Shown piece after piece: positions 3,355-31,750 of a stretch of DNA of 64,000 nucleotides. The notes below the pieces were generated by a model. That model searched no databases. It was not told where the DNA came from and saw only the letters and a program-made list of their open reading frames with translations. The number at the start of each line of letters is the position of its first letter. Positions within the stretch are counted from its first letter, which is position 1. The stretch covers positions 1-64,000 of IMG/VR virus record IMGVR_UViG_3300017971_000019. One strand, 5' to 3'. This stretch comes from a virus. Taxonomy: Duplodnaviria; Heunggongvirae; Uroviricota; Caudoviricetes. Position numbers and translations under genes: made by a program.

Positions 3355-3359
3355 AGGTT

Positions 3360-7544: not shown

Positions 7545-7642
7545 CGTGCTCTCCTCTCTCTCTAATCTAGTAGTACGTAGTATGTACTTCCCTCAAAGCA
7601 GAGCAAAGCATATCAAAGCAAAGGGTCATCCGTGTCTTCAGC

Positions 7643-7682
7643 GTCAACAGGGGGTGTTGACAGCCATGGGACAATGTTGACA
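7643..7682. promoter_or_regulatory. operator-like element: GTCAACA-ggggg-TGTTGAC inverted repeat plus a third TGTTGACA half-site, directly upstream of the SD and ATG at 7694
   Basis: Read directly. Two TTGACA hexamers at 7657-7662 and 7677-7682. Preceded by an AT-rich tract and CAAAGCA direct repeats at 7595-7620. Confidence 0.45.
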
Positions 7683-7693
7683 AAGGAGGACGT

Positions 7694-8239
7694 ATGAGCT
7701 TTGCCATCCTCGACGGAAAGGCCCTCACGTCGTCGATCACAGACGAGGGCCTCGTGACGTGGGGAGTCTGGATGGCCATCCTGGCCGACAAGGACCAGGA
7801 CGGAATCACCTCCCTCAACCCCCGCTTCCTCGCCAAGGTCTTCGGACACGACGTGGCCGAGATCGAGGAGGCCTTCAAGACCCTCTCCTCCCCAGACCCG
7901 CACTCGAAGAACGAGGAACACGAGGGACGACGCATCATCCCCGTGGACGGAGGACGCTGGCTCGTCGTGAGTCATGAGAAGTACCGGCAGATCTACCGCA
8001 AGGAGGTCCGCCGCGACTACCTCACCCAGGCGAAGAGAGCGCAGCGCGAACGCGAGAAGAGAGAGAAGCTGTTCACGAAAGACGAACAGCCGCCAGAATT
8101 GAACAAGACCGAGAAGACCGAGCAGGAAATCCTTCAGGAGGCCTTCATCGCACCGGACAAGAAGTGTAAGCACGAGGGCTGCCAGGTGAGGCCGCTCGAC
8201 GGCGACTACTGCTACGACCACTTCATGACAGGCTTCTAG
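7694..8239 (+). CDS. hypothetical protein (181 aa); the N-terminus loosely resembles a phage replisome-organizer or DnaD-like protein
   Basis: Strong AAAGGAGG ribosome-binding site. ORF track. The resemblance comes from memory only and is weak. Confidence 0.7.
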   Translation: MSFAILDGKALTSSITDEGLVTWGVWMAILADKDQDGITSLNPRFLAKVFGHDVAEIEEAFKTLSSPDPHSKNEEHEGRRIIPVDGGRWLVVSHEKYRQIYRKEVRRDYLTQAKRAQREREKREKLFTKDEQPPELNKTEKTEQEILQEAFIAPDKKCKHEGCQVRPLDGDYCYDHFMTGF

Positions 8240-8264
8240 GATGCCTAGCTGGGAAGAGGTGAAA

Positions 8265-8498
8265 ATGGCAAGGTTCGACACATTCTCGGGGGGGTGCTCC
8301 ATCTTCGACCCACCCGACGAGCGAGACGTAGACCGTGAGACAATTCGCCGTCGCCTGGTCAAGGAGGACGCCGCGCTTCGACCGTGGCTGATCGGGAAGG
8401 CCTTGAGGGGAGTCAAGTACACATGGCGAGACCGAGTAAAGTTCACGCTTGCCTCGGCCTGGGAGGCCGGGCTGTGGGCATGGAGGATGAGCAAATGA
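8265..8498 (+). CDS. hypothetical protein (about 77 aa; alternative start 8241)
   Basis: GGAAGAGGTG ribosome-binding site before the ATG at 8265. ORF track. Confidence 0.45.
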   Translation: MARFDTFSGGCSIFDPPDERDVDRETIRRRLVKEDAALRPWLIGKALRGVKYTWRDRVKFTLASAWEAGLWAWRMSK

Positions 8499-8749
8499 AC
8501 CCAGGAACGTGGGGGTTGGTGAAGAAGCTGGACACGTACAAGGAGATCAACAAGAAGCAGGCGGCTCTCATCAGAGAGCTTCGTGAGAGTCTGGAGTCTC
8601 GCGAGTGCGAGGGCTGCAACCACCTCCAGGACGAGAACGATGACCTGGTGAACGAGCTTCTTGAGACGAGGCGGCAAAGGGATGCCTTCAAGTACTCGCT
8701 CACCTGTTACATCAAGGACGACGGACAACTGATCGGGGAGATCGAGTGA
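8495..8749 (+). CDS. hypothetical coiled-coil protein (about 84 aa; start trimmed from 8384)
   Basis: GGAGG lies 8 nt before the ATG at 8495. Contains CEGC. Confidence 0.45.
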   Translation: MNPGTWGLVKKLDTYKEINKKQAALIRELRESLESRECEGCNHLQDENDDLVNELLETRRQRDAFKYSLTCYIKDDGQLIGEIE

Positions 8750-8910
8750 ACGCGGGGGAGATCAACGTCTGCATCGAGCACGAGAAGGAGATCAGGAAGC
8801 TCCGCGAAGAGAAAGCAGAGCTTCAACGACGCATCGACAAGGCAATGGTAGCCGCGAAGAACGGGATGATCATGTACTTCGTCATCGCGGCATTGGAGGG
8901 TCACAAGTGA
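8746..8910 (+). CDS. hypothetical small protein (54 aa, GTG start)
   Basis: GTGA overlap with the upstream stop. The reading frame stays open through to the TGA at 8908-8910. Confidence 0.3.
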   Translation: MNAGEINVCIEHEKEIRKLREEKAELQRRIDKAMVAAKNGMIMYFVIAALEGHK

Positions 8911-9167
8911 GCGAAGAGAAGAACGTCGAACTGACCGAGCAGGAAATCCTGGAGGCGCGGAGCGCGTCGATGATGTTGGCTGCGTGTGCGGCTCCGTACA
9001 ACGCCAACGGACTATCCCTACAGAAGTCTCTGGAACGCGCAGAGCGCATCCTGGAGGCCTCAGAGGCCTACGTCGTGGCGGGATTCACGGCGATCAAGAA
9101 GAGGAACATCGAGGAAGAGGAGAAGCCCAGTGCAGAAGGACAAGCTGATGGCGATCCGGGAGAGTAG
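8907..9167 (+). CDS. hypothetical protein (86 aa, GTG start)
   Basis: ORF track. Translationally coupled to the upstream gene. Confidence 0.45.
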   Translation: MSEEKNVELTEQEILEARSASMMLAACAAPYNANGLSLQKSLERAERILEASEAYVVAGFTAIKKRNIEEEEKPSAEGQADGDPGE

Positions 9168-9525
9168 GGGCGAAGACTACGGCCCCGTCAAGCAGAACCA
9201 CGAATCCATCGGAGCCATCTTCGACGGAATCCTCCACCAGTTCGGGTGGAACTTTCACAAGAAGTCGCTGAAGGACCACCCGGAGGTTGTCACGCTCCTG
9301 ATGAGCGGGCTGAAGCACTCGCGTGAGTCGTTCAAGCACAAGCAGGACAACATCGATGACGCGAAGAACTACCTCGACTTCACCAGAGAGATGGCAGAGG
9401 AAGAGATCTTCGAGGTCAGCAACTCCTACTTCTGCGACTTCAGCGAACTGACAGACGAGGAGATCTGCGAGCTTCTCGATTCCATCGAAATACCAGGGGA
9501 GGTCGAATGCGTCCACGACCGCTAG
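9151..9525 (+). CDS. hypothetical protein (124 aa; start trimmed from 8986)
   Basis: ATG at 9151 follows GAAGGA. The longer N-terminus is Arg/Ser-rich junk overlapping the previous gene. Confidence 0.45.
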   Translation, partial: AIRESRGEDYGPVKQNHESIGAIFDGILHQFGWNFHKKSLKDHPEVVTLLMSGLKHSRESFKHKQDNIDDAKNYLDFTREMAEEEIFEVSNSYFCDFSELTDEEICELLDSIEIPGEVECVHDR

Positions 9526-10610
9526 TTCTATATCACGGCGAGTGCTACGACGGACTCGGTGCCGCCTGGGCGTTCAGATACTTCTACGGCGAGGAGGCCG
9601 ACTTCGTGTCTGTGAGGTACGGGGATCCGCCTCCGTTCAACCTGGTGAAGGGACGCCACCTGTGGCTTCTAGACTTCTCGTACGGGCGCGAGGACATGAA
9701 GAAGCTCATCGTGTCTTCGAAGAAGACAACGGTCTACGACCACCACCAGACGGCAGAGGCCGAACTCGACAAAATCCTCGGAGAGATCCGCAACGAGTTC
9801 CGGGTCCAGCGCGACCAGGACAAGATCGTGTTCGACATGAGCCGCTCCGGTGCTGGTATCACCTACGACGAGATGGAGCGACTGGCTGACCAGAAGGCCG
9901 GCAACAAGACGCCCCGCCTCCTGGGCCGGCGCAAGGCCTGGATCATCGACTACATCGAGGACCGGGACCTGTGGAAGTTCAAGCTTCCCGGATCGAAGTC
10001 CGTGTCCGCCTACCTGGCGTCCATGCCGATGACATTCGAGACCTTCGACGCGGTCAACAAGAGGGAACCCAACGAGGTCATCTCCGAGGGTATGACCATC
10101 GAGAGGTACGTCGATGTCTTCGGAGAAAAGGCCATCAAGAACACGGTGCGGCGCAAGCTCGGTGGGTACGTGGTGCCGATCATCAACGTGCCGTACATGA
10201 ACTCCAGCGACCACATCGGCAAGCTGGTGGAGCAGAACCCCGACGACCCGTTCGCCGCAGGCTTCTTCCTGCGCAACGACGGGAAGTGGCAGTTCGGGCT
10301 TCGCTCGCGTGGGGAGTTCGACGTGTCCGAGATCGCCAAGCTGTACGGCGGGGGAGGACACAAGAACGCCGCAGGCTTCCAGGTGGAGACCCTGCCGTGG
10401 GAGGACCAGTCGCAGCAGATCTACGGGTGGATCGACAAGGAGAAGCTCGAAGAAATCAAGAAGGAGGCGGGAGAAGGCTTCCCGATGCCGACCTCGATTG
10501 CCGTAGAGACGGAAGAGGGCAACGTCGTGACAGTTGCCGAAAACGAAGACGGGGGTCTGTCGTTCACTACCGAGGCCCCCGAGAAGGAGAAGAAGGATGA
10601 AGCAGACTGA
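9507..10610 (+). CDS. DHH-family phosphoesterase with a DHHA1 domain (NrnA/RecJ-like), 367 aa
   Basis: CYDGLGAAW (motif I), VYDHHQ (DHH motif, nt 9738-9746) and a C-terminal LYGGGGHKNAAGF (DHHA1 GGGH motif). Confidence 0.8.
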   Translation: MRPRPLVLYHGECYDGLGAAWAFRYFYGEEADFVSVRYGDPPPFNLVKGRHLWLLDFSYGREDMKKLIVSSKKTTVYDHHQTAEAELDKILGEIRNEFRVQRDQDKIVFDMSRSGAGITYDEMERLADQKAGNKTPRLLGRRKAWIIDYIEDRDLWKFKLPGSKSVSAYLASMPMTFETFDAVNKREPNEVISEGMTIERYVDVFGEKAIKNTVRRKLGGYVVPIINVPYMNSSDHIGKLVEQNPDDPFAAGFFLRNDGKWQFGLRSRGEFDVSEIAKLYGGGGHKNAAGFQVETLPWEDQSQQIYGWIDKEKLEEIKKEAGEGFPMPTSIAVETEEGNVVTVAENEDGGLSFTTEAPEKEKKDEAD

Positions 10611-15915: not shown

Positions 15916-16203
15916 ATGACAGGTGGAGTTCACACCATCGGGGCCACCGCTGCGAAGCTGGCCAACGACGACAACCCCTACACCAAGATCACGGTCAGGC
16001 TGAACCTCAGCGGGAACCAGACGTTCTTCGGGAACAGCGACGTGGCGAGTGACGGCACCAACGCGCACGGCTACCTAGTGGCGACGGCGACCTCTGGTGA
16101 GTCGTGGACGTTCGGGCCGTACCCGTCCGGGGCCGGCATCAAGCCGTCCGACCTCTACTTCGTTGGCACGGCAGGCGACAAGCTCTTCTGGACAGGCGAA
16201 TAG
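15916..16203 (+). CDS. small protein, paralog A of a duplicated family (95 aa)
   Basis: Its C-terminus (...WTFGPYPSGAGIKPSDLYFVGTAGDKLFWTGE) aligns with the product of 24199..24492. Confidence 0.6.
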   Translation: MTGGVHTIGATAAKLANDDNPYTKITVRLNLSGNQTFFGNSDVASDGTNAHGYLVATATSGESWTFGPYPSGAGIKPSDLYFVGTAGDKLFWTGE

Positions 16204-16216
16204 CCGGGAGGCCACC

Positions 16217-17701
16217 ATGCGCTGGGTAGTCCTTCTCCTTCTGGTCCTCTGGCCGCAGCACGGGACGACGCCAGGAACATCTCACGGAAAGCCTGGTGGC
16301 CCGCCAGAAGACATCACAGCGTCTACTACGTCGTCGTCAGTCTACGACTCTGCCACCGCGATCTGGTGCTTCAACGACAACACCGACCTCGGTGATGACT
16401 GTGCCAGTGATGAGGCCACCTACGACCTGACCCCGGTCAACACCCCAACGGCGACTGGCGGGGCTCTCGGATATGCCCTCGCCAACGATGGCACGGAGGG
16501 CAAGAGAGCCGCCGCCGCAGACTCAGCCACACTCTCTGCCGCCGGGGGGAGCTTCACTGCCTGCTTCTGGACCGTGAACGACAACCCCAACGACAACGAC
16601 TTCTACATCGGGAAGGACGACTGGGGCTCGCAGAGGGAATGGCACTTCAGGAACGATGGGCTCCAGCCTGCGATCTACTACAGCAGGAGCTGCAACAGCT
16701 TCGAGGACAGCGCTAGCACTGGCGTGAACCTCGTTGCTGGTGAGCGGAACTTCGTCTGTGGTTGGTATGACTCTTCCACCAAGAAGGGCACTGCATGGGT
16801 GAACGGGACGGAGGGCAACACCGGCTCCGCGATGGCGACCGACATGGGGGACTGCACCAGCGACTTCGTGGCGGGGGATGCCGAGACCGCAGGGTCTAAC
16901 CGAGACCCGATTGAGGGCACCGTGGGCCCGGTCTACTGGTGGAAGGGTGAGGTGGTGGCGGACGCCACCCTCGACCTGCTCTACAACTCTGGGAAGGGCA
17001 TGACCTGCGAGGACGCCGCAGCGGTGGACACCATGACCGCCTGCTGGGATCTTGACGAAGACCCATCAGGGGGTGCCGGGGCGTACAAGGACTCAGTCGG
17101 CTCTGAGGACATGTCCCCAGAGGGTACTCCTCTGCAAGTCGCTGGGCTGGTGGAGCGGAGTGACTCGGGGATGGGTGCAAACACCCCAACAGCGTCTGGA
17201 CAACGATTTACTATTGCCGATGCGGTGTGGAATTACCCCGGAACGGGTTCCTTTTCGTTCACCTTCTGGTTCAGCGCAGAGGATTTGCCTGCATCCACAT
17301 ACTTCATCCCGATCTCTAAGGGGAATGGGTGGGAGTATCAAGCCACAGCGGGGTATGGTGTTGATAGGATAAATTGTCAGTTCATTGACAATGGGCCAAA
17401 CACAATCACCGCAGGCCCAATTGACTACACCCCAGAAGAGTGGCACTTCGTTGCCTGTGTCCTCGATGCTACGACCGGGAAGGTCAAGATTTCCGTTGAT
17501 GGCTCGGACTTCACAGTCAGCGCAGCCACGTCAAACGGAACCATTCGAGACAGCACGCAAACCATCTCTATTGGAGCATCAAATACAACATTCAGCGGAG
17601 TGCTGGACAACGTAGCCTTTTTCAAAGGCACGGCTCTCACGCAGGAAGACGTGACAGCACTCTACGCCGCAGGCGAGGGCCTCTTCTACCCGGAGTCTTA
17701 G
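16217..17701 (+). CDS. protein with two tandem concanavalin-A/LamG-like domains and a signal-peptide-like N-terminus (494 aa)
   Basis: GGGAGG ribosome-binding site before the ATG at 16217. The N-terminus MRWVVLLLLVLWP is hydrophobic. Two blocks show LamG-type patterns (W.H.a.v.D...k.Y.DG; ...LDNVAFFKGTALTQEDV). Confidence 0.7.
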   Translation: MRWVVLLLLVLWPQHGTTPGTSHGKPGGPPEDITASTTSSSVYDSATAIWCFNDNTDLGDDCASDEATYDLTPVNTPTATGGALGYALANDGTEGKRAAAADSATLSAAGGSFTACFWTVNDNPNDNDFYIGKDDWGSQREWHFRNDGLQPAIYYSRSCNSFEDSASTGVNLVAGERNFVCGWYDSSTKKGTAWVNGTEGNTGSAMATDMGDCTSDFVAGDAETAGSNRDPIEGTVGPVYWWKGEVVADATLDLLYNSGKGMTCEDAAAVDTMTACWDLDEDPSGGAGAYKDSVGSEDMSPEGTPLQVAGLVERSDSGMGANTPTASGQRFTIADAVWNYPGTGSFSFTFWFSAEDLPASTYFIPISKGNGWEYQATAGYGVDRINCQFIDNGPNTITAGPIDYTPEEWHFVACVLDATTGKVKISVDGSDFTVSAATSNGTIRDSTQTISIGASNTTFSGVLDNVAFFKGTALTQEDVTALYAAGEGLFYPES

Positions 17702-17874
17702 TGAACTGCTGCATCTGCGGGAACCAGGACAACGCCGTAGAGTGGTGCTCGATCTGTGAGCACTTCTTCTGCGGCGGTTGCCGTTGGAGCCTGTTTCATC
17801 GTGGCCGAGACGCATTGAAGCAGTGGCTTCTGAAGAAGCCGCCGAAGCACTGTAATCACAAGGGGGAGAGATGA
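17701..17874 (+). CDS. small Cys-rich protein (57 aa, GTG start; CxxC x3)
   Basis: Reading frame is open. The start overlaps the upstream stop and the stop overlaps the downstream ATG. Confidence 0.35.
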   Translation: MNCCICGNQDNAVEWCSICEHFFCGGCRWSLFHRGRDALKQWLLKKPPKHCNHKGER

Positions 17875-19181
17875 TCGAAGTAAATCCACCAGCCGTAGCC
17901 CCAGACGAGGCCGATGATCGCCTAGAGAAGTACGCGACTCCTTTGCAGTGGACCTGGTACTTGAAGTGGGTCGAGCACGGATCGTACTCCGCAGCCGCAC
18001 GCGATGTCGGCGCGGACGGCACGACTCTTCGGCGTGGGATCCGCTCCATCTACAAGAAGGCTGCTCAGCAGGGCTACGCGCCCCACCACGGCCTTGTACA
18101 CGAGGTCCCCGAGGGAATGACCTCCAAGGGCACCTCAGTGCTCTACGACGGAGATGGTGAGGTCCAGGGGTACTGGAACAAGACCACGCGCCAGGGGAAG
18201 GAGCCGGACGAGGCAATCCAGCTTCCAGACGGCGTGGCCGTGAAGGTCTCCACCCTCTACGACAACGCTGGGAGGGTACAGCAGCAGTGGGTCCAGGAGA
18301 GGCCAGAAGACAGGGACCGCATCGAGATCTGGACCGAGATTGCGAAGGAGCTTGCCAAGAAGATTGAGCCCCTTCCGCAGATCTCCAGCCCTGGTCAGCA
18401 CATGGACTCTGACCTATTCGTGGGCTATCCGGTGAGCGACCTACATCTAGGGATGCTCTCGTGGGACAGGGAGACTGGGGACGACTGGGACATCAAGATC
18501 GGTGAGGAGATGCTCAACAAGTCCATCGCCTACCTTGTCTCTGCGGCGCCGAAGTCTGACGAGGCCCTCATCGCCTTCATGGGCGACTTCATGCACTACG
18601 ACTCGTTCGACACAGTGACGCCGACTCAGAGGAACCTCCTCGACGCGGACGGGCGCTACCCGAAGATGGTCCGAGCCGCAATCAGGGCGATGCGCAATAC
18701 CATCGAGGAAGTGGCGAAGAAGCACCGTGTGGTGAGGGTGATCATCGAGATCGGGAACCACGACCTGTCGTCCTCGATCTTCCTCGCGGAGGCGATGCAC
18801 GCTCTCTACGAGAACACTCCGCGCATCTTCATCGACACGAGCCCGATGCACTTCCACTACGCCGAGTACGGGAAGGTTCTCATCGGAACTCACCACGGGC
18901 ATGGTGTGAAGATGGACAAGCTCCCCGGCCTGATGGCATCTGATCAGCACGAGGCATGGGGGCGTACAGAGCACCGTGTGTGGTGGACAGGGCACATCCA
19001 CCACACCCAGATCCACGAGTTCCCAGGCTGCAACGTCGAGAGCTTCCGCGTTCTCGCTCCAAAGGACGCCTGGCACCACCAGCGCGGCTACCGCGCAGCC
19101 AGAGACCTGAAGGCCATCGTGTTCCACAAGGATTACGGTGAGGTCTCTAGGCTGACGGTGAACCCGGAGATGTTCAGGTAG
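17871..19181 (+). CDS. calcineurin-like metallophosphoesterase with an N-terminal domain of unknown function (436 aa)
   Basis: Metallophosphatase motifs GDFMHYD and IEIGNHD (GNHD/E), and a histidine-rich THHGHG...HIHH region. Confidence 0.7.
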   Translation: MIEVNPPAVAPDEADDRLEKYATPLQWTWYLKWVEHGSYSAAARDVGADGTTLRRGIRSIYKKAAQQGYAPHHGLVHEVPEGMTSKGTSVLYDGDGEVQGYWNKTTRQGKEPDEAIQLPDGVAVKVSTLYDNAGRVQQQWVQERPEDRDRIEIWTEIAKELAKKIEPLPQISSPGQHMDSDLFVGYPVSDLHLGMLSWDRETGDDWDIKIGEEMLNKSIAYLVSAAPKSDEALIAFMGDFMHYDSFDTVTPTQRNLLDADGRYPKMVRAAIRAMRNTIEEVAKKHRVVRVIIEIGNHDLSSSIFLAEAMHALYENTPRIFIDTSPMHFHYAEYGKVLIGTHHGHGVKMDKLPGLMASDQHEAWGRTEHRVWWTGHIHHTQIHEFPGCNVESFRVLAPKDAWHHQRGYRAARDLKAIVFHKDYGEVSRLTVNPEMFR

Positions 19182-22522: not shown

Positions 22523-23575
22523 ATGGCAGCAACAAGCATCACTCGCACGTACAACGCGAGGCTGACGGCGCTGCTCGACAAGATCCGCCCGGTCATCCAG
22601 AACCAGATCACCACCGCGAACCCGTTCTACTTCAAGTACAAGAAGTCCGGGAACTGGAAGACCGTTTCGACTCTTGGCGACCGCCTGCGCGTGCCTCTCA
22701 TGTACGAGTTCGCACCCGTGGACACCTTCGGCCCCAACGGCGTGGGCCAGGTGGACGTGACCCCAACCGATGGCCAGACTCCCGCCTTCTTCGAGTGGGC
22801 GCGTATGGCCTCCTCGATCACCATCGGTGACTTCGAGCGTGCCCAGAACAAGGGTGCCGCCCTCGATCTGCTCAAGAGCAAGACCGAGCAGGCGATGTCC
22901 GGTCTGGAAGATCGCTTCGGTCGCTGGCTGATGCAGGGTGAGGGCGCGAACGACACGTCCAGCATCACCACCGCTCGCACCAGCGCGGTCAACGGCTCGA
23001 CCTTTGTGGAGCCCATCCCGCTGATGATCAAGTACAGCCCCGCCACCACCTCGGTCGGATCCATCGACCCGGCATCCGAGACCTGGTGGAGGAACCAGGC
23101 GGTCTCGACCGCTTCCGGCACCTACGCGGCTCTGCTCAAGAACATCGACCACCTGATCAACCTCTGCTCCCAGAGCGCAGGACCCGGCCCCGACCTGTTC
23201 GTGGCCGACCTTCTGGGCTACGAGGTGATCTCGGCGGCTCTTCGTTCTCTCCAGCGTTTCGTGGACTACGAGGAAGTCTCCTTCCCGTGGAAGGCGATCC
23301 GCCTCAACGGCGCTCCGCTCTGCTTCGACCAGTTCGTTCCCGACGCACGGAACGGCAGCACCACGATCAGCACCGCTTCCACCCTGTACGCGGCCAACAC
23401 CAAGTACATGGGCGTGTCCGTGTACTCGGGCGCGGACTTCACCCCAGGCGAGTTCGTTCGTGCGCCGAACGGCACGGGCGAGACCTCGATCATCCAGTGG
23501 TACGGCGCCCACTGGATGAGCCGTCGTGACAAGCACGGCGTCCTCGGCATCAGCGACAACAGCATCACGAGCTAG
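22523..23575 (+). CDS. putative major capsid protein (350 aa)
   Basis: Has its own promoter, a GGAGGA ribosome-binding site and a terminator downstream. Follows the scaffold-like gene. Size is consistent with an HK97-fold coat protein. Confidence 0.6.
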   Translation: MAATSITRTYNARLTALLDKIRPVIQNQITTANPFYFKYKKSGNWKTVSTLGDRLRVPLMYEFAPVDTFGPNGVGQVDVTPTDGQTPAFFEWARMASSITIGDFERAQNKGAALDLLKSKTEQAMSGLEDRFGRWLMQGEGANDTSSITTARTSAVNGSTFVEPIPLMIKYSPATTSVGSIDPASETWWRNQAVSTASGTYAALLKNIDHLINLCSQSAGPGPDLFVADLLGYEVISAALRSLQRFVDYEEVSFPWKAIRLNGAPLCFDQFVPDARNGSTTISTASTLYAANTKYMGVSVYSGADFTPGEFVRAPNGTGETSIIQWYGAHWMSRRDKHGVLGISDNSITS

Positions 23576-23672: not shown

Positions 23673-24110
23673 ATGATCTTCAACAGCTTCCAGCGCGACG
23701 ACGACGACAAGGTCTTCACCATCGTCCGCAACGTGTCCGGGGCAACCCTGGCCGTCGGTGAGGCCTGCGTCTGGGATTCCGGCGCTTCCCGCGACGGCGT
23801 TCGCGTGACCCAGGCTGCGGCAACGACCCTGTGCCTCTTCCGAGGCATCGTGGCCGAGTCCCTCGCGGACTCCGCCTACGGCAAGGTCCAGGTCCACGGT
23901 CTGTTCACCGACGCGTCCGTCACCAACGACACCTCCATCTCCGTGGCAGCGGGCTCCCCGCTTCTCGCGGTGGCCTCTCAGGACTACCTGAAGCCGCTCA
24001 TCAACACCGCGACCGGCTACGAGGGCTTCGTGTACGCCGCAGAGGCCTACGCGGACAACACCTCGGTCGTGGCGGCGGCGGAGAAGGACGTGTTCATCCG
24101 CGCCCTGTAG
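23673..24110 (+). CDS. putative head decoration or minor capsid protein (145 aa)
   Basis: AAAGGAG ribosome-binding site before the ATG at 23673 (ORF-track start 23625 trimmed). Lies between the capsid gene and the terminator. Confidence 0.45.
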   Translation: MIFNSFQRDDDDKVFTIVRNVSGATLAVGEACVWDSGASRDGVRVTQAAATTLCLFRGIVAESLADSAYGKVQVHGLFTDASVTNDTSISVAAGSPLLAVASQDYLKPLINTATGYEGFVYAAEAYADNTSVVAAAEKDVFIRAL

Positions 24111-24153
24111 TCACGGCTACAAGAGGGCTTTCCGAAGGCCCAGTGGGGGTTCC

Positions 24154-24176
24154 GGCCCCTGCTGGGCCTTTCTTCG
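24154..24176 (+). terminator. intrinsic terminator-like hairpin GGCCCC-tgct-GGGCC followed by TTTCTTCG, with a TGcTAAAAT extended -10-like box at 24181-24189
   Basis: Read directly. The T-tract is imperfect. Confidence 0.5.
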
Positions 24177-24492: not shown

Positions 24493-26378
24493 GCCAGTAC
24501 TCGACCCACCCAAAGAAGATCAAGATCCACGACGATGACGGCGATGTCCTGGAGATCAACGCCGACGGGACCATTGGAGTCGTTGTCCCGGACACGACGA
24601 AGGTTAAGGTCTGGGACGGGACAGACGAGCTAGCAGTCAACACTGACGGCTCGATCACCACGCAGCTTCTCAGCAAGATCTGCACGAACAACTCGACCGA
24701 TACCCCGCTCCTGGCCAACGCCACGTTCACCGGCACAGCGGGAGAGATGAACGGGTACGCTTCCATCCTGATCACGGTCTACACGGACGTGGCGAGCGCA
24801 ACTGATGGGCTTTCTATCCAGTTCTCTCACACGGACAGCCCGTACGACTGGCACGAGTCTGACGCTTACACAATCGCTGCGGGTGCGTACAAGACCTTCA
24901 CGCTCCAGCCGGTGGATGCCTACTTCAGGATCGTCTACACGAACGGCGGAAGCGACCAGACTGCATTCCACATCAACGTCCAGCTTCACTCGGTAGCGCC
25001 GAAGGCATCCTCGCACAGGATGGAGGACGACATCAGCGGGCAGGACGATGCCCAGTTGGTGAAGTCGATCCTCGCGGCAGAGAGACCGGGAACTGCGGGA
25101 ATCTACACGAACATCCAGGCGACGAACGGTGGGAACCTGAAGGTGAGCGTGGAGGAGTTTGACGGACTCCAGACTAATCCAGACGGAAATCAGATCGTTC
25201 AGATCAGCGACAACAACCTCGATGCTTTCTCGCGCATGAGGGTCTCGCTGCCGATTGCGCTCTTCGACTCATCTTTCCGCTACGACCTGGACCCGCTCAT
25301 TTTTGAGACAAGCACGGCCAACGGAGGGAGTGTTACTCATGCGCCCGCGAGGGCTGCTGCCGCTCTTGCTTTGGATGGAACTGCCGGTGGAAGTGCCATC
25401 ATTCAGTCCAAGGAGTACATGCAGTATGTTCCGGGCAGGAGCCAGCTTATCCTGATCACTGGGCTGATTGGTGCTGGCAACGGGAACCAGAAGCGCGTCG
25501 GCTACTTTGACGCCAACAACGGCATCTACTTCGAGCAAGACACGGACGACTCTATCAAGATCGTCAGGAGGACTGACACCTCTGGGTCGCCAGTCAATAA
25601 TGAAGTGGAGCAGGCGAACTGGAACCTAGACACTCTGGACGGAAATGGATTTAGCGGAATAACTCTAGACCCGACGAAGGTCTACATCCTGGTCATCGAC
25701 CTTCAGTGGCTCGGGATGGGGCGCGTCCGAGTGGGCTTCGACATCAACGGAGAGATCGTGTGGGCTCATGAGTTCCTGAATGCCAATGTCCTCACAACGG
25801 TCTACATGAGAACTGGCTCTCTTCCAGTTCGTTGGGAGCACACTGGAGACAATGCAGACAGCATGGATGCTGTGTGCTCAGCCGTCCTCTCAGAGTCTGG
25901 TAACGATTCCCAGCTTAGCTATCACTTCTCCGGTAATGTGGGAGAGATCAGTGCAGGAACAAGCGCTACCTACGCGGGGGCGATCAGGCCCGCCGCCACG
26001 TTCAACTCCATCACGAACAGGACTCACATTCAGCTTGAGAGCGCTGGGCTCACCGTCACCGGCAACTATGCGGTGAGGCTGGAGATCTACTACGGTGGAA
26101 CTATCGGTGGGAGCCCTTCTTGGACAGCAGCGAACGCTTCTTCTGCCCTTGAGGTGGACGTTGCGGGCACCCCGTCCGGTGGTGTGAAGATTGACGAGTT
26201 CGTTGTTGGGGCGACCTCAAGGGCATCAAGCTCTTTGGAGGCAAGCGTGTCTCACCGCTTCCCCCTCTGCCTCGACATTGCAGGAACGGGCTACAACCTC
26301 ATCTACGCGACTGTTACATCTCTGGGCGTTTCATCTAGCGACTGCTACCCAGACTTCAAGTGGAACGAGTATAGGTAG
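24489..26378 (+). CDS. large virion structural protein (629 aa), function unknown
   Basis: ATGA overlap with paralog B. Composition is beta-rich with many Thr/Ser/Gly. Confidence 0.65.
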   Translation: MSQYSTHPKKIKIHDDDGDVLEINADGTIGVVVPDTTKVKVWDGTDELAVNTDGSITTQLLSKICTNNSTDTPLLANATFTGTAGEMNGYASILITVYTDVASATDGLSIQFSHTDSPYDWHESDAYTIAAGAYKTFTLQPVDAYFRIVYTNGGSDQTAFHINVQLHSVAPKASSHRMEDDISGQDDAQLVKSILAAERPGTAGIYTNIQATNGGNLKVSVEEFDGLQTNPDGNQIVQISDNNLDAFSRMRVSLPIALFDSSFRYDLDPLIFETSTANGGSVTHAPARAAAALALDGTAGGSAIIQSKEYMQYVPGRSQLILITGLIGAGNGNQKRVGYFDANNGIYFEQDTDDSIKIVRRTDTSGSPVNNEVEQANWNLDTLDGNGFSGITLDPTKVYILVIDLQWLGMGRVRVGFDINGEIVWAHEFLNANVLTTVYMRTGSLPVRWEHTGDNADSMDAVCSAVLSESGNDSQLSYHFSGNVGEISAGTSATYAGAIRPAATFNSITNRTHIQLESAGLTVTGNYAVRLEIYYGGTIGGSPSWTAANASSALEVDVAGTPSGGVKIDEFVVGATSRASSSLEASVSHRFPLCLDIAGTGYNLIYATVTSLGVSSSDCYPDFKWNEYR

Positions 26379-26401: not shown

Positions 26402-27817
26402 ATGAAGCAGAAGTGCCTCATGCTGGGGGCGGGGTCTGCTCCGCCGAAGAGGAAGCTGACGGACCCCCAGTTCTCGGCTTCCGAGGAAGAGACCGAGTGG
26501 GTCACCCTCGACATCATGGAGAGGAATAAGCCGGACATCCTCTTCGATCTGAACTGGATCGAGAGGACCGACATGACCGTAGCCACGCACGGGCTGCGCG
26601 ATGGATACCTCTGCAATCAGATCCCAGTCCCAGACGAGACATTCGATGAGATCCACGCCTACGAGGTGATGGAGCACTACGGGAAGCAGGGGGACTGGGA
26701 GGGGTTCTTCCAGGGGATGAAGGAACTCTGGCGCATCCTGAAGCCTGGGGGGATGCTCATCGGGACCGTTCCGAAGTACACGTCCGAGTGGGCATGGGGA
26801 GATCCTGGTCACACGAGGGTGATCACAAAGGGGACGCTCTCCTTCCTGATGAAGGCGTCGTACGAGAACAAGTCGAGCAACGAGCCGAGGACGGACTACC
26901 AGGACTACGTCGATCCGTGCTGGTGGGAGCCGAGGCATGGGGCTGACCTGGGGGAGCACTACAGCTTTGGGATCAGGAAGCCTATCGGTGAACTCAGCCT
27001 TCAGATCGAGACTGGCTCGACGTGCAACGCCGCTTGCAACTTCTGCGTCTACCCGGAGGCAGCGAAGGAGCGCAGCGGGAAAAAGATGCGACGGCACACG
27101 TTCGAGGACATCATCGACGATGCGGAAGTCCTGGGTGTTGGCAAGGTGGTACTGAACGGACTGAACGAGCCGCTCCTGGACCCGGACCTAGAGTCGAAGA
27201 TCGAGTACGTCAGGGCCAAGATGCCGAGGGCATTCATCGAGATCTACTCCAACGGGCTCCTGATGACGCCACGTAGGTTCGACTCGCTGGCGGATGCAGG
27301 GCTCTCCGGGGTGGTCTTCAGTCTCAATGCAGTGACCCCGAGGCAGCACGAAGAGATCATGGGCATGAAGGGGAAGTTCGACCTCATCGAAGGTCACATC
27401 GACTACGCCCGCGAGAACAAGAAGGGCGTCACGGTTGAGGTTCATGCCGTGATGAACCCCGACTACTTCGACCACTCGGACGAGATGAGCTTCTACCACA
27501 GGTGGGGGCACTACAACGAGCCGAATGGGGTCGGCGCTGTCATCCGCGAGGGGAACTGGGCGAACGAACTTGACGCGATCAAGAAGTTCTCCCCGAATGA
27601 GAAGTGCGGAAGGGCCACCAACCAGATGTACATCACGTACGACGGGAGAGTCACGACGTGCTGCTTCGACCCGTTCGGACGCCAGGTCTTCGGGAACGTC
27701 GAGAAAGAATCCCTGAAGGTGATCCGCGACTCCGAAGAGTACGTGGCGTTCAGGAAGGCCCACGAAGAGGACCGCGCAGACGAGTACGACATCTGCCGCA
27801 ACTGCACGAGAATCTGA
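26402..27817 (+). CDS. fusion protein: N-terminal class-I SAM methyltransferase plus C-terminal radical-SAM enzyme with a SPASM/twitch-like domain (about 471 aa)
   Basis: GGGAGAGAG ribosome-binding site. Methyltransferase motifs LMLGAGSA and LKPGGML. Radical-SAM cluster motif CNAACNFC (nt 27023-27046). C-terminal Cys-rich region TTCCFDPFG...GNVEKESLKVIRDS...ICRNC. Confidence 0.75.
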   Translation: MKQKCLMLGAGSAPPKRKLTDPQFSASEEETEWVTLDIMERNKPDILFDLNWIERTDMTVATHGLRDGYLCNQIPVPDETFDEIHAYEVMEHYGKQGDWEGFFQGMKELWRILKPGGMLIGTVPKYTSEWAWGDPGHTRVITKGTLSFLMKASYENKSSNEPRTDYQDYVDPCWWEPRHGADLGEHYSFGIRKPIGELSLQIETGSTCNAACNFCVYPEAAKERSGKKMRRHTFEDIIDDAEVLGVGKVVLNGLNEPLLDPDLESKIEYVRAKMPRAFIEIYSNGLLMTPRRFDSLADAGLSGVVFSLNAVTPRQHEEIMGMKGKFDLIEGHIDYARENKKGVTVEVHAVMNPDYFDHSDEMSFYHRWGHYNEPNGVGAVIREGNWANELDAIKKFSPNEKCGRATNQMYITYDGRVTTCCFDPFGRQVFGNVEKESLKVIRDSEEYVAFRKAHEEDRADEYDICRNCTRI

Positions 27818-28374
27818 TGGGCATCATCGAGCAGTACGCGACAGGCAACAAGCTGAACATCGGGTGTGGCACAGACTGTCGAGACGGCTGGGTGAACGTG
27901 GACTTCCACGGCGCTGTTGGGTCGGACTATCAGTTCGACCTCAGGAGCAGGTGGTCGCTGTTCCAGAACAGCACCTTCGACACGGTGCTGGCCTCGCACG
28001 TCCTAGAGCACTTCTCTGGGCCGGACCTGTTCCACGTCATGTTCGAAGCCGGTCGCGTTCTGCGACCAGGCGGGCGGCTCCTCGGAATCGTCCCATATGC
28101 AACGAGCGAGATCTTCTACGCCAACCCGTTCCACAAGCAGGCGTGGACGGAGAGAACTCCGATGCAGTTTGACCGGCGGCTCTATCATTCCGGCGGCGGG
28201 CCATCGTCCCTGCACGCAGACCAGGGAATGAAGCTTCAGCCGTGGGACGTGGAGTGTGTGTATCTTAGGCCGGCGGAGGGGTGGGAGGACGAGCCCGACA
28301 TCCAGGCGGCAGCGAGGAAGTACCTCAACGTGATTGACGAGATGCACTTCGTCATGAAGCTGGTGGAGGAGTAA
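27817..28374 (+). CDS. class-I SAM-dependent methyltransferase (185 aa)
   Basis: ATGA overlap with the upstream gene. Motifs LNIGCGTDC, VLASHVLEH and LRPGGRLLGIVP. Confidence 0.7.
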   Translation: MGIIEQYATGNKLNIGCGTDCRDGWVNVDFHGAVGSDYQFDLRSRWSLFQNSTFDTVLASHVLEHFSGPDLFHVMFEAGRVLRPGGRLLGIVPYATSEIFYANPFHKQAWTERTPMQFDRRLYHSGGGPSSLHADQGMKLQPWDVECVYLRPAEGWEDEPDIQAAARKYLNVIDEMHFVMKLVEE

Positions 28375-29138
28375 TGGTACAGGCGAAGGCGGATGAGTTC
28401 TCGGGGTTCCGAGTGATGCTGGTGACCCCGACCTATGGGCCTGTGGACCCGATCTGCGCGAAGGATCTCCGAGTCGCAGTCATGGGCGCTTCGAACCACG
28501 GTGTCTACTGGTGCGGTGACGGCTCAGGCGACAGGATGGGCTACTCGCTCACGAGGAACGGGTCTACCCAGATCGCGTACGAGAAGGAGGATATCGGGGG
28601 GATCATGTGGGTGGACTCCGACATCCGCCCAGCGCCAAACAGCATCCTTTCCATCCTAGCGTCGGTGAGGGACTTCAAGGCGGAGTTCGTGACCGGCATC
28701 TACCACCAGAGGGCCGGCAGGAACCTCCCGGTGATCTACGACTTCGATGAGGAGACGGAGCACTTCCGCCAGTACCAGGGCTACCCGGAGAACACGTTCA
28801 TGCCGGTGGATGGCTGCGGGTTCGGGTTCGTCTGGACGAGCAGGAAGCTCATCCGGGCCATCGCAGAGCACCCGGAGTTCAAGCAGGAAGACGGATGGTT
28901 CCCCGACAAGCGGGACGCGGGTGGGTACGGTGAAGACCTCAGCTTCTGCTACCAGGCGCGAAGGGCTGGGTTCCAGTTGTACGCCAATACGTCTGTTCAG
29001 GTCGGACACCTGGCCGCGCCGTACGTGGTCACCAGGCAGGACTTCCTCAACAAGGAAGTGAAGGGTGACGAGCTTGCCAAGGTGGTCCTGAAGGAGCGGA
29101 AGAACATTGGAGTGTGGGGAGAGCGAGAAGATGATTAA
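28374..29138 (+). CDS. putative GT-A fold (family 2-like) glycosyltransferase (254 aa)
   Basis: LVTPTYG, a DSD acidic motif and the overall pattern resemble GT2 enzymes. Called from memory; moderate confidence. Confidence 0.5.
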   Translation: MVQAKADEFSGFRVMLVTPTYGPVDPICAKDLRVAVMGASNHGVYWCGDGSGDRMGYSLTRNGSTQIAYEKEDIGGIMWVDSDIRPAPNSILSILASVRDFKAEFVTGIYHQRAGRNLPVIYDFDEETEHFRQYQGYPENTFMPVDGCGFGFVWTSRKLIRAIAEHPEFKQEDGWFPDKRDAGGYGEDLSFCYQARRAGFQLYANTSVQVGHLAAPYVVTRQDFLNKEVKGDELAKVVLKERKNIGVWGEREDD

Positions 29139-29502
29139 GGACTACCCGAAGATCAAGGCCCTACAGGGCGAACTCAGGAACGACGGAAAGGTCTACGACC
29201 TCTACAGGTGCCGCAAGTGCGGGCACGTCTTCACCAGGGAGGAGGAGCTTGAGTTCTACGCGATGGGCTCCCTCTTCACCCCGGAGGAGGAGCGGGAGGA
29301 GACCATTTGCCCGTGCGGGAGCATGAAGTTCGAGCCGAAGCGCCCGCCCAAGAAGCCCAGCGAGATGCTCCGCAAGGAATTCCGCCGTTGGCGGATCTGG
29401 GCCTATGTGGGTAAGCTGGTGCTTGCACGATGGCTGGCACCGAAGCTGGAGAAGAACCGGAATCTCCAGTTCCTGCTACCTTATATCGAGAAGCTCGTCT
29501 AG
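29130..29502 (+). CDS. zinc-ribbon protein (124 aa; CRKCG...CPCG)
   Basis: GGGAGAGCGAG ribosome-binding site. Start trimmed from 29107. Confidence 0.5.
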
Positions 29503-29512
29503 GAGGACAAGC

Positions 29513-29815
29513 ATGGCCAACTACGCACAGACCGGAAACCGATACACCGCGATCTTCGTCATCGAGAAGGACAACTCCGGTGGCAAGCTGTACAAGAGGG
29601 CCCCGTTCGATCTCGTCCGCTTCAATGTGGACTCGAACCCGGACGCAGAGCCAGAGATTGTCCCCCTCGGGGTTCAGGAGAGCCCTCCAGGGACAGCGGC
29701 GACACCGCCAAAGCCGGACACGGACAAGATCTACGAGAAGATCTGGGTCGTGGAGACGATGCCGTACAGCGCGTCCCGCACCGGCAAGCACGACTTCGCT
29801 CCGCACCTCGACTAG
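29513..29815 (+). CDS. hypothetical protein (100 aa)
   Basis: AGGAGGA ribosome-binding site before the ATG at 29513. Confidence 0.5.
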   Translation: MANYAQTGNRYTAIFVIEKDNSGGKLYKRAPFDLVRFNVDSNPDAEPEIVPLGVQESPPGTAATPPKPDTDKIYEKIWVVETMPYSASRTGKHDFAPHLD

Positions 29816-29824
29816 GGGTGACCT

Positions 29825-30244
29825 ATGCGCGTAGAGGACATGCTCCTCCGTGAGGAGGGATTCGTCCCGCACGCCTACCAGGATCCGCTCGGATACTGGA
29901 CAATCGGCATCGGGCGATTGATCGATAAGCGCAAGGGTGGAAGGGTCTCGAAGGATGAGGCCCTTTTCCTTTTGCGTAACGACATCGATGAGGTCAAGCG
30001 CGGGCTTGACGAGAACATCCCATGGTGGCAGGGCTTGAAGCCAGTCAGGCAGGCTGTCCTGATCTCGATGGCCTTCCAGATGGGCGTTGCCGGCCTTCTC
30101 AAGTTCAAGCGGACACTTCAGGCCGTAAAGGACGGGGACTTCGAGAAGGCTGCGAAGGGGATGCGTGGTTCGCTGTGGGCCAGGCAGACACCTGGTCGCG
30201 CAGAGCGTCACGCACGACAGATGGAGACAGGACGATGGCACTAG
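29825..30244 (+). CDS. endolysin: glycoside hydrolase family 24 (T4-type) lysozyme (139 aa)
   Basis: MLLREEGFVPHAYQDPLGYWTIGIGRLI carries the T4-lysozyme catalytic Glu, Asp and Thr signature. Confidence 0.85.
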   Translation: MRVEDMLLREEGFVPHAYQDPLGYWTIGIGRLIDKRKGGRVSKDEALFLLRNDIDEVKRGLDENIPWWQGLKPVRQAVLISMAFQMGVAGLLKFKRTLQAVKDGDFEKAAKGMRGSLWARQTPGRAERHARQMETGRWH

Positions 30245-30543
30245 ACGACTTCTACTGGGTAGTCTGGCTTCTCGTGATCTTCCTGCCGTACGAACTCTAC
30301 GGTGCCTTCTCGAAGAAGGACGGGGACACGCTCTCTGAAAACGTCTGGGACTGGTTCGCCGTCAAGAACAAGAATGCGAAGTACGGTAGGCTCCGCCGGC
30401 TGATTCTCTTCGGCTTCTGGGTTGGGCTAGGAAGCCACTTCGTGTTCGCGACCAGCGTCCTGCCCGTCATCATCGGCGGGATCGGGATGGCCTGGTCCAT
30501 CGGGTACTACTACCTGAAGGAGAAGAAGCACGATGAGAGTTAA
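30235..30543 (+). CDS. holin-like small membrane protein (102 aa, 2-3 transmembrane helices)
   Basis: Overlaps the lysozyme stop. Hydrophobic segments VVWLLVIFL and LILFGFWVGLGSHFVFATSVLPVIIGGIGMAW. Confidence 0.5.
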   Translation: MALDDFYWVVWLLVIFLPYELYGAFSKKDGDTLSENVWDWFAVKNKNAKYGRLRRLILFGFWVGLGSHFVFATSVLPVIIGGIGMAWSIGYYYLKEKKHDES

Positions 30544-31750
30544 GAGGCTGATTCTTACCGTGGCCGTGTTCACTATCACGGCCATGATAACGGGGGCCGT
30601 TATTGGTTGTGGAGGATGGACCCCTCCAGGCCCTCCTGTGAACCCGTGCGACCAGTGCGACCCGGAGACGCAGTACTGCGACGACGGACAGTGCGTGGAC
30701 AAGTACACGGAGGAGTGCCAGGCCCTTCTCGACCAGGGGCTTCCGTGGTGCGCACCGGGCACGACATGCGGTGAATGTGTCCACAACCCAAGCGCGGACC
30801 CGCGCCATTGCGAGAAGCTGGCCTCCTGCACCGAGCCTCCACTCCCAGAGCCCCAGTGCCCGCAGTTCACGGATAGGGGCGGAACGCTACGTCTTCTCAG
30901 GGCCACCCCAGACCTCACGAAGGACCCATGCGACTGCTACCTTGGTGAGGAGTGGATCCCATGCGACGACCCGGTCGCGTGCGGTTTCCCGCAGGGCATC
31001 CCGAACGAGAAGTTCACCCTCGTCCAGAACCCCGGTCGATACGGGTCCGTAGTCAATAGTGTGATGGCAGAACTCACCGGATGCGCGGTGGGGACGGACT
31101 GCCCCATCACCTTCGGGCCAGACCCGTGGATGAAGCTGGTATGCGACTCGCTCTGCGAGAAGGGGTTCAACTGTGGCCGGCACAACGACACACCGCCAGG
31201 CGCAACCGACCAGATCAGCGTCAAGCAGGGGGACTTCTGCGACGGACAACTCCACGAGAACTACCAGATCTACAACTACGGAGGAAAGAAGGTACGCTGG
31301 GCTCCAGGAGGACAGCAGGATGGCTGGCTTGTGGAGTGCGATGGAAGTACTCCTCCGCCGGTTGGTGATTGCACGCAGCCGCATCCAGACGTGACTAGGA
31401 TGCAACTGAAGTGCCGCGAGCACAACGGGATCCTCGACTGCACATGGGTCACAGTGAACCAACCCGACTTCTGCGGATCTATCGGCTACTGCTGTATGCC
31501 TGGTTCTCCGTGCGGTTGCAACGAATGCGGTGTGCCTGGCTGTACACCCCGTGGGGGGTGCCCTGTTCGAGGGGATGGGGATCCAGAGCGCGATGTCTGC
31601 GAGGCGGAACTCTGCGACCAGAAGTGGACATGCAACGGGGAGCCCTATCCTCCGTACAAGGGCAATCCCGCTCAAAGCGATTGCAGGGGAAACTGGGTGA
31701 CGTGGTGCAGTGCCCCAGGCTCCACGGCAAGAGCGGAAGGTCACCGATGA
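30533..31750 (+). CDS. cysteine-rich secreted protein or lipoprotein (405 aa, about 55 Cys)
   Basis: N-terminal signal sequence with a lipobox-like VIGC. The mature part has dense CxxC and CxC motifs. Confidence 0.6.
   Translation: MRVKRLILTVAVFTITAMITGAVIGCGGWTPPGPPVNPCDQCDPETQYCDDGQCVDKYTEECQALLDQGLPWCAPGTTCGECVHNPSADPRHCEKLASCTEPPLPEPQCPQFTDRGGTLRLLRATPDLTKDPCDCYLGEEWIPCDDPVACGFPQGIPNEKFTLVQNPGRYGSVVNSVMAELTGCAVGTDCPITFGPDPWMKLVCDSLCEKGFNCGRHNDTPPGATDQISVKQGDFCDGQLHENYQIYNYGGKKVRWAPGGQQDGWLVECDGSTPPPVGDCTQPHPDVTRMQLKCREHNGILDCTWVTVNQPDFCGSIGYCCMPGSPCGCNECGVPGCTPRGGCPVRGDGDPERDVCEAELCDQKWTCNGEPYPPYKGNPAQSDCRGNWVTWCSAPGSTARAEGHR

Follow-up and report, generated by a model that had tools for sequence, protein, structure and literature searches.

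What is a radical S-adenosylmethionine (SAM) enzyme doing among the late structural genes of a tailed phage? The question is raised by the first 64,000 nucleotides of IMG/VR virus record IMGVR_UViG_3300017971_000019 (Caudoviricetes), the whole stretch analysed here and referred to as the window. It is phage-like (GC content 60%, late genes on the + strand) and carries three consecutive + strand genes for a methyltransferase-radical-SAM fusion protein (26402-27817, 471 aa), a second class-I methyltransferase (MT2; 27817-28374, 185 aa) and a GT-A glycosyltransferase (28374-29138, 254 aa). The original prediction, made from the letters alone, read these genes as a cassette that modifies a virion protein or, alternatively, serves DNA or surface-glycan modification. 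Our analysis favours, at somewhat better than even chances, the view that these genes represent one form of a variable glycosylation island which many uncultured tailed phages carry in their capsid module, and in which a radical-SAM enzyme here tailors a sugar. That they belong to a glycan pathway can be said with considerably more confidence, while a virion protein as the acceptor is again somewhat more probable than any acceptor outside the virion. Most likely what the island yields is a tailored glycan on the virion surface and not a peptide crosslink of the kind known from peptides made on the ribosome and modified after translation (RiPPs); acceptor, sugar and reaction, and with them every enzymatic step, are what we infer from gene content and position.

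A ribosome-binding site (GGGAGAG) lies upstream of the ATG of the fusion gene, the fusion and MT2 genes overlap by 1 nt in TGATG at 27815-27819, the MT2 and glycosyltransferase genes overlap by 1 nt in TAATG at 28372-28376, and the start of the gene after the glycosyltransferase falls within the glycosyltransferase stop codon (ATGATTAA). The three enzyme genes are translationally coupled and lie inside a late operon. Three coupled enzyme genes between a 629-aa structural protein and the lysis genes had been proposed originally, and the open reading frames, their overlaps, the virion structural protein upstream (phrog_1645) and the lysozyme downstream were all confirmed. The second methyltransferase gene is likewise present (Pfam Methyltransf_11, E=6.7e-7), with its start corrected to 27817. 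None of the three proteins (fusion protein, MT2 and glycosyltransferase) contains a transmembrane segment, and all three enzymes are soluble.

Which chemistry can be expected of the radical-SAM half? Its core (aa 203-346 of the fusion; 27008-27439) matches Radical_SAM PF04055 with E=2.8e-18 and 67.1 bits against a curated cut-off of 29.5, so that the radical-SAM call passes the profile search. The CX3CX2C motif (CNAACNFC; C208, C212 and C215 at 27023-27046) is invariant in 28 homologues and aligns with the cluster cysteines of BtrN. The C-terminal domain (aa 402-469; 27605-27808) matches the Pfam SPASM model PF13186 (E=6e-14). A SPASM domain in the strict sense has seven or eight cysteines in the pattern CX9-15GX4C ... 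CX2CX5CX3C ... C and carries two auxiliary clusters. The domain of the fusion protein has only five cysteines, C402, C420, C421, C465 and C468, in the pattern CX12GX4C followed by CX2C at the extreme C-terminus (C402-X12-G-X4-C420(C421) ... C465-X2-C468); C402, C420, C465 and C468 never vary across the 28 homologues, and C421 hardly does. Because there are five cysteines only and no CX2CX5CX3C second-cluster motif, the Cys-rich C-terminus is, as far as its sequence tells, a twitch domain (a truncated SPASM) with one predicted cluster and not a two-cluster SPASM domain. That the Pfam SPASM model is matched anyway reflects its coverage of twitch domains as well. This is in line with the published distinction that SPASM domains hold two auxiliary clusters and twitch domains one (PMC9012708). 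The wording 'SPASM/twitch-like' used originally is thus borne out by the Pfam match and the twitch pattern, while a full two-cluster SPASM domain does not stand.

The best PDB relative of the single fusion sequence is BtrN (E=1.9e-14, in two stretches covering both halves). With a profile of the radical-SAM family, BtrN is found at E=8.9e-42 and the next best match, MoaA, at 2.2e-13, followed by BlsE (1e-10), DesII (2e-10), SkfB (5e-10), YydG (2e-9) and anSME (6e-8). All seven cluster cysteines, three of the radical-SAM motif and four auxiliary, align with BtrN cysteines. BtrN, itself a twitch enzyme, oxidises a hydroxyl group on a cyclitol (PMC9012708). The phage family accordingly appears, by sequence comparison, to be specifically BtrN-like, with sugar- or cyclitol-acting enzymes as its nearest characterised relatives. 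The reaction would be a two-electron oxidation of a secondary alcohol on a sugar or cyclitol, and the genomic context supports a carbohydrate substrate.

These results bear directly on a different scenario, in which the radical-SAM enzyme and the fused methyltransferase act on a virion protein or a small peptide itself, by crosslinking, epimerisation, Ser/Cys oxidation or the preparation of a residue for an LH3-like glycosyltransferase, with the cassette's glycosyltransferase working separately or downstream. Modification of a virion protein in this way was the leading idea of the original prediction. Many SPASM/twitch enzymes do act on peptides (PMC9012708), the Pfam SPASM model matches, and small open reading frames lie nearby. 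Furthermore, the glycosyltransferase folds near LH3 and COLGALT1, which act on an already modified lysine, and GT_PLOD genes occupy the same slot in other phages. Nevertheless we consider direct protein modification quite unlikely, since the family profile favours BtrN over peptide-modifying radical-SAM enzymes by about 28-30 or more orders of magnitude and there is one auxiliary cluster only. Moreover, the Pfam scan found no RRE/PqqD domain, the N-terminal region being the methyltransferase, and no small open reading frame is kept beside the radical-SAM gene across three phage groups. The RiPP- or sulfatase-maturase reasoning of the original prediction had to be given up on the same grounds (BtrN preference of the profile, single auxiliary cluster, absence of RRE/PqqD) and because cellular relatives lie in aminocyclitol-type or polysaccharide clusters. 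A special version of direct protein modification, in which the radical-SAM enzyme creates the acceptor residue on a capsid or cement protein for the LH3/COLGALT1-like glycosyltransferase, would be an O2-independent counterpart of the collagen lysyl-hydroxylase and glycosyltransferase logic; we give it even less credence.

The other half of the fusion protein, here called MT1 (about aa 1-193; 26402-26980), matches Methyltransf_11 with 25.1 bits against a cut-off of 21.2, so that the call of a class-I methyltransferase fused to a radical-SAM domain is backed by Pfam matches to both. In MT1 the residues G9, G11 and D37 are invariant, and there is a WxWGDPxHxR motif. Modelled as a domain alone (pLDDT 82) it shows the class-I methyltransferase fold, with small-molecule and sugar methyltransferases such as AtmM and NodS as the nearest PDB folds. 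MT2 matches, besides Methyltransf_11, the methyltransferase family phrog_6636 (2e-11), and MT2-type genes are placed after the radical-SAM gene in several related viral loci (L008, L009, L017, L020-L024). Since the identical 471-aa protein recurs on 7 contigs, the three places listed coming from three separate samples, the MT1-radical-SAM fusion is real. It is also lineage-specific and joins two genes that are neighbouring but separate in relatives. In a syntenic phage (locus L004) a 179-aa methyltransferase, 49% identical to the N-terminus of the fusion, and a 274-aa radical-SAM protein (52%) are encoded by genes overlapping by 4 nt, and an MT1-type gene directly adjoins the radical-SAM gene in most of 80 viral radical-SAM loci, even where radical-SAM identity is down to 25-30%. 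The fusion had been called unusual for a phage structural module; this is true of it as a fusion and not of the pairing, with separate and adjacent methyltransferase and radical-SAM genes in dozens of viral loci.

For the third protein no Pfam model scored above threshold (sub-threshold E=0.012-0.046). It matches PHROG glycosyltransferase families (phrog_34859, 7e-10), and 19 of the 34 members of its family match Glycos_transf_2 PF00535, the best at 5.8e-6. A WxDSD motif is invariant in the 34 sequences (W79, D81 and D83); in the window it reads W79-V-D81-S82-D83, the DxD lying in WVDSD at 28608-28622. The structure model (pLDDT 90, pTM 0.86) has a GT-A fold and gave 213 Foldseek matches in the PDB at E<=0.001, among which the 50 listed are mostly GT-A enzymes with a few nucleotidyltransferases. 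The top match is A197 of Sulfolobus turreted icosahedral virus (STIV; 3e-10), and the LH3 glycosyltransferase domain, COLGALT1, Mimivirus R699 and ppGalNAc-Ts are also found; of these, LH3, COLGALT1 and the ppGalNAc-Ts glycosylate proteins. Against a viral structure library the model retrieved phage and giant-virus GT-A proteins and the PLOD-like glycosyltransferases of PBCV-1, Megavirus and moumouvirus. Because the PHROG match, the family-wide GT2 matches, the invariant WxDSD and a confident model agree, the third protein is a GT-A enzyme with a DxD motif, its fold being that of the model, and the call of a GT-A-like glycosyltransferase stands.

What, then, do these enzymes decorate? One lead comes from gene position. 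Clustering of viral loci combined with PHROG annotation placed the trio of glycosyltransferase, methyltransferase and radical-SAM genes in three groups of phages whose capsid families are unrelated (phrog_9953, phrog_283 and phrog_10). In group A, to which the window belongs, the order is capsid (phrog_9953), small protein, a variable segment, methyltransferase/radical-SAM/(MT2)/glycosyltransferase, Zn-ribbon protein, small protein and lysozyme. Group B has terminase, portal, scaffold, capsid (phrog_283), glycosyltransferase, methyltransferase, radical-SAM and adaptor genes, and group C protease, capsid (phrog_10), a 139-aa protein, in brackets a methyltransferase-GT2 fusion, radical-SAM and adaptor. 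In these groups the enzyme genes fill the interval that runs from the capsid gene, which a small protein may follow, to the adaptor genes. A genome-neighbourhood comparison had been suggested together with the cassette; once run, it showed the trio conserved after the capsid gene in three groups, and the idea of the cassette as a virion modifier is the reading best supported by this synteny.

The island was also approached from the capsid side. A seed of the phrog_9953 family gave 138 viral matches, from which the 55 loci with at least 4 kb downstream were counted. A glycosyltransferase gene follows within 5 kb in 50 of the 55 (median distance 1.6 kb), a methyltransferase in 32 and a radical-SAM gene in 17; glycosyltransferase alone was seen in 17 loci and glycosyltransferase plus methyltransferase without radical-SAM in 18. 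Among the 17 radical-SAM loci, 15 have a glycosyltransferase and 14 a methyltransferase. The distribution is nested (glycosyltransferase > glycosyltransferase + methyltransferase > all three), as expected for a core transferase with optional tailoring layers. The radical-SAM gene, as the least conserved layer and one that almost never occurs without a glycosyltransferase, behaves as expected of a tailoring step, which also speaks against direct modification of a protein.

The contents of the slot tell the same story. In other phages it holds GT_PLOD, polysaccharide pyruvyl transferase (PS_pyruv_trans), GT1, GT2, sulfotransferases, an MptE-like protein and further methyltransferases, one of them a rhamnosyl O-methyltransferase at E=1e-37. 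Domain fusions link the partners: methyltransferase-radical-SAM in the window, methyltransferase-GT2 in locus L025 and, in relatives, CxxCxxCC-radical-SAM and glycosyltransferase-CxxCxxCC. The glycan pathway, named only as an alternative at the outset, is the best-surviving part of the original prediction.

The CxxCxxCC metal-binding domain (PF03692) is found at the N-terminus of the radical-SAM protein in P0009, P0030, P0034 and P0043, fused to the glycosyltransferase in P0094, P0105, P0114 and P0135, and free-standing in L025 (10562-11257). It may be a fourth partner, possibly with a redox role; its motif is absent from all six frames of the window. L025 also encodes, at 3207-3695 in its group-C head module and upstream of protease and capsid, a cytidylyltransferase-like protein that may activate a sugar or polyol for the island. 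In four AT-rich viral contigs (L055, L061, L076 and L080) one or two radical-SAM paralogues lie inside large nucleotide-sugar and glycosyltransferase clusters, which contain GDP-mannose dehydratase, epimerase/reductase, a CMP-sugar-type cytidylyltransferase and many paralogues of an unannotated family of ~300 aa.

Could the acceptor be DNA? Phage glycosyltransferases and methyltransferases commonly act on DNA (10.1101/2023.12.21.572611), and head and packaging genes lie near the cassette. It might therefore hypermodify phage DNA around packaging, adding glycosylated and methylated bases in the style of T-even phages or of glycans on 5-hydroxymethylcytosine. We attach very little probability to this scenario. 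A hydroxymethylase, TET/JBP (TET/5mYOX) or kinase partner turned up neither in related slots nor in the scan of the window, which covered its open reading frames apart from many small ones and only this stretch of the 92-kb genome. A DNA methylase is present solely as a domain within a 4825-aa polyvalent protein, MT1 folds like small-molecule enzymes and not like DNA methyltransferases, and the other contents of the slot, pyruvyl-, sulfo- and rhamnosyl-O-methyl-transferases, are glycan enzymes. The 4825-aa protein is encoded by a single open reading frame at 47590-62067 (+), with an ART-PolyVal domain at aa 2621-2895, the C-5 cytosine DNA methylase at aa 4620-4774 and another methyltransferase domain, and looks like a giant 'polyvalent' protein of the tail or injection region.

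Relatives in cells and in cultured phages were searched as well. In the cellular genomes searched, radical-SAM relatives reach an identity of about 30% or less. One of them (P0065, 30% identical) lies in a cluster of DHQ-synthase-like, DegT, NTP-transferase, ROK, GH4 and GT4 genes reminiscent of aminocyclitol pathways. Another lies in an archaeal Wzx/GT2/methyltransferase/radical-SAM cluster in which the methyltransferase gene overlaps the radical-SAM start, as in the phages. The neighbours of cellular radical-SAM genes are weakly enriched in methyltransferases and NAD-dependent sugar epimerase/dehydratases, the commonest families, each making up only 4-6 of the 76 neighbours scanned. In the genome contigs scanned, where relatives had an identity of 29% or less, virus-type MT1 and glycosyltransferase families showed no linkage to cellular radical-SAM genes, and therefore no host or prophage was identified. 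The cellular relatives of MT1 are domains of GT2+TPR or TPR+GT41 (OGT-like) proteins, which we take to be protein-glycosylation architectures. In the cultured phage collection, nucleotide and protein searches returned no relatives of the fusion protein, and the glycosyltransferase gave weak partial matches only, mostly to cyanophage proteins. We found no description in the literature of a radical-SAM enzyme in a phage capsid-glycosylation context.

The cellular neighbourhoods lend some weight to two further scenarios. In the first, the product of the enzymes would be a small molecule that stays free, such as an aminocyclitol or a modified sugar metabolite, with no macromolecule being decorated. 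BtrN is indeed an enzyme of an aminoglycoside pathway, and the relative P0065 sits in its DHQ-synthase-like/DegT cluster. The phage loci, however, have no cyclase, aminotransferase or other pathway enzymes, a glycosyltransferase with tailoring enzymes alone makes no pathway, and the tight linkage to the capsid gene would be left unexplained; among the scenarios weighed here this one is the least credible.

The second scenario has the island make or tailor a glycan on the host cell surface (lipopolysaccharide, capsule or S-layer) late in infection, so as to block superinfection or keep progeny from sticking to debris. It fits the cellular relative in the Wzx/GT2/methyltransferase cluster and the Wzi, Polysacc_synt_2 and sugar epimerase genes beside others. 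The fold of the glycosyltransferase is also near that of polysaccharide glycosyltransferases, and in the window the cassette abuts the lysis genes. Against it we note the lack of a flippase, of a GtrA/GtrC-like membrane partner and of any transmembrane segment. In addition, the genes lie within the head module, from capsid to adaptor, in three lineages; they occupy neither an attachment site nor the place of an early gene or a moron. The glycosyltransferase is near-universal in the capsid lineage, unlike accessory seroconversion genes, and MT1 relatives are fused to TPR/OGT-type protein glycosyltransferases. A host-surface glycan is consequently unlikely in our view, if less so than the scenarios considered above.

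We therefore return to a glycosylation island acting on the virion and propose the following course of events. The GT-A enzyme, as the constant core, would transfer a sugar from a host nucleotide-sugar to a cytoplasmic acceptor, for which the major capsid protein or the small cement-like protein of the gene shortly upstream is the likeliest choice, and the class-I methyltransferases would methylate the sugar so added. The BtrN-type radical-SAM enzyme would abstract a hydrogen from a sugar C-H beside a hydroxyl and pass the second electron to its single auxiliary [4Fe-4S] cluster, so that the sugar would lose two electrons and become a keto-sugar, or would undergo a related radical rearrangement. 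The fusion suggests that MT1 and the radical-SAM domain act in succession on the same sugar, for example by methylation adjacent to or following oxidation. The island might also endow phage capsids with glycan 'serotypes' that vary, radical chemistry being one of the tailoring layers, a possibility to which we give somewhat less than even chances.

Several observations weigh against this view of the locus. The link to the virion is one of gene position and as such circumstantial, and in the window itself the 97-aa and 629-aa genes part the cassette from the capsid gene while the cassette abuts the lysis genes. Cytoplasmic glycosyltransferases also build lipid-linked cell-surface glycans, so that solubility does not discriminate between acceptors. 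The identity to BtrN is only 24-31% over the aligned segments, which makes the reaction type a lead and not a result. NCBIfam radical-SAM families match in number, all far under their cut-offs (best 86 bits against 400), and hence yield no equivalog assignment. The MT1 fold matches are generic (TM-score about 0.5) and do not fix a substrate, and the fold neighbours of the glycosyltransferase include polysaccharide glycosyltransferases (KfiA, GlfT2) and nucleotidyltransferases. Finally, the radical-SAM gene is carried by no cultured phage in the collection searched, with one metagenomic match to a group-B radical-SAM, so that the collection offers no characterised phage as a model.

If a virion protein is the acceptor, which one could it be? 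On the + strand of the window an acidic scaffold-like protein is followed by the major capsid protein (22523-23575; phrog_9953 major head protein, E=5e-31), a small protein of 145/161 aa named p161 (23673-24110, 145 aa counted from ATG), the 97-aa protein, the 629-aa virion structural protein and the three enzymes. The major capsid protein and p161 would be our candidate acceptors. The p161 gene follows the capsid gene in nearly all loci of the window's lineage. The p161 protein of the window has no Pfam, PHROG or PDB match; its orthologue in L171 matches Phage_cement_2 at 0.0027, below threshold, and a gene of the post-capsid region in one related locus matches the same Pfam family at 3.5e-10. 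We thus regard p161, by these similarities, as probably a capsid cement or decoration protein. Right behind its gene lies a GC-rich hairpin with a T-run (24151-24168, +) that could attenuate downstream transcription, but terminator-like sites are no commoner in the region than expected by chance, and a scan of the region for promoters and terminators gave no sites above chance.

The adjacent 629-aa protein, which had been offered as an example of a modification target, was rejected as a dedicated substrate since it is not conserved beside the cassette. In L004 its position is taken by a different, 783-aa protein (6589-8940), and in many relatives by nothing. By sequence the 629-aa protein has no PDB match, and the 783-aa protein consists of many tandem repeats of ~40 aa (…HENGGADEI.V.GLSGLLADAQ.P…). 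A nucleotide search of the phage collection gave a single match: 123 bases at 25686-25808 are 76% identical to a gene annotated as 'structural protein' in Virus Rctr197k (KX853510.1), which stems from an enrichment culture that oxidises methane.

Downstream of the cassette follow a Zn-ribbon-like small protein (29130-29502, +; two CxxC-like pairs), a 100-aa protein (29513-29815, +), the lysozyme (29825-30244), a holin-like protein and a Cys-rich lipoprotein-like protein. The Zn-ribbon-like and 100-aa proteins always stand between glycosyltransferase and lysozyme in the window's lineage, and homologues of the former come right after the glycosyltransferase in L004, L008-L013, L171, L172 and L175-L177. 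The Zn-ribbon-like protein, which has no Pfam or PHROG match, is possibly part of the lysis module, though both it and the 100-aa protein may instead belong to the glycosylation island. The Cys-rich protein behind lysozyme and holin-like gene (30533-31750, +; 405 aa) has an N-terminal hydrophobic signal with a lipobox-like ...GAVIGC, a 55% identical counterpart in L004 and no Pfam or PHROG match. Scattered among the head genes are a phrog_704 'DNA repair exonuclease'-like gene (17871-19181, +), a DHH phosphoesterase (9507-10610, +) and a Laminin_G_3 protein (16097-17701, +).

Why would such an island matter? A few mycobacteriophages, chloroviruses and archaeal viruses are documented to encode the glycosylation of their virions, and the island points to a much wider, unstudied system: in one capsid lineage about 90% of loci have a glycosyltransferase right after the capsid gene and about a third a BtrN-type radical-SAM enzyme. 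If the capsid is the acceptor, the capsid surfaces of many environmental phages would consist of chemically diverse glycoproteins. This would bear on how the particles adsorb to surfaces and mucus, how stable they are, how host defences that sense capsids recognise them and how antibodies do so in therapy. To the study of radical-SAM enzymes the locus contributes a large family of small twitch proteins that probably act on carbohydrates, and the natural methyltransferase-radical-SAM fusion hints at coupled oxidation and methylation chemistry.

How does the island compare to known systems? At the level of the radical-SAM enzyme the closest counterpart is BtrN, the 2-deoxy-scyllo-inosamine dehydrogenase of the butirosin pathway (PDB 4M7T). 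Both are compact radical-SAM proteins of ~270 aa in which CX3CX2C is combined with a twitch domain at the C-terminus, and the four auxiliary cysteines all align. Unlike BtrN, however, the phage enzyme, at 24-31% identity, is encoded in a head module beside a glycosyltransferase and methyltransferases, is fused to a methyltransferase and does not belong to an aminoglycoside cluster. SPASM-type RiPP and protein maturases (anSME, PqqE, SkfB, YydG, SuiB) share the superfamily and the Pfam SPASM match. They differ in having two auxiliary clusters where the phage protein has one (SkfB, itself a twitch enzyme, is the exception), and the phage loci have no RRE and no conserved precursor gene.

Among viruses, the chloroviruses, giant viruses and STIV are comparable in the GT-A fold, STIV A197 being the top PDB match, and in combining glycosyltransferase and methyltransferase domains, as the methyltransferase-GT2 fusion of L025 does. 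They are eukaryotic or archaeal viruses with other capsids, and the similarity is one of structure only, at 10-20% identity. We know of no radical-SAM tailoring in the capsid glycosylation of these viruses. A precedent is offered by the mycobacteriophages Che8, Corndog and Myrna, whose own glycosyltransferases were shown to glycosylate capsid or tail proteins in the cytoplasm (Freeman et al. 2023, as summarised in PMC12363180). Phage glycosyltransferases acting on virion proteins, shown there, are proposed here from genes alone. In contrast to the mycobacteriophage systems, the island has no sequence match in the phage collection, lies directly after the capsid gene and is hypervariable, and no radical-SAM enzyme is described for them in the part of that account available to us.

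In its organisation the island resembles O-antigen and capsule loci, where a conserved core transferase is likewise combined, at one locus, with swappable methyl, pyruvyl, sulfo and extra-glycosyltransferase tailoring. Unlike these loci, it has neither Wzx/Wzy/Wzz nor an initiating phosphoglycosyltransferase and is encoded in a head module. Virus-encoded virion glycosylation as such is already known; what appears to be new, judging from the genes compared here, is the radical-SAM tailoring layer and an O-antigen-like variable slot behind a phage capsid gene.

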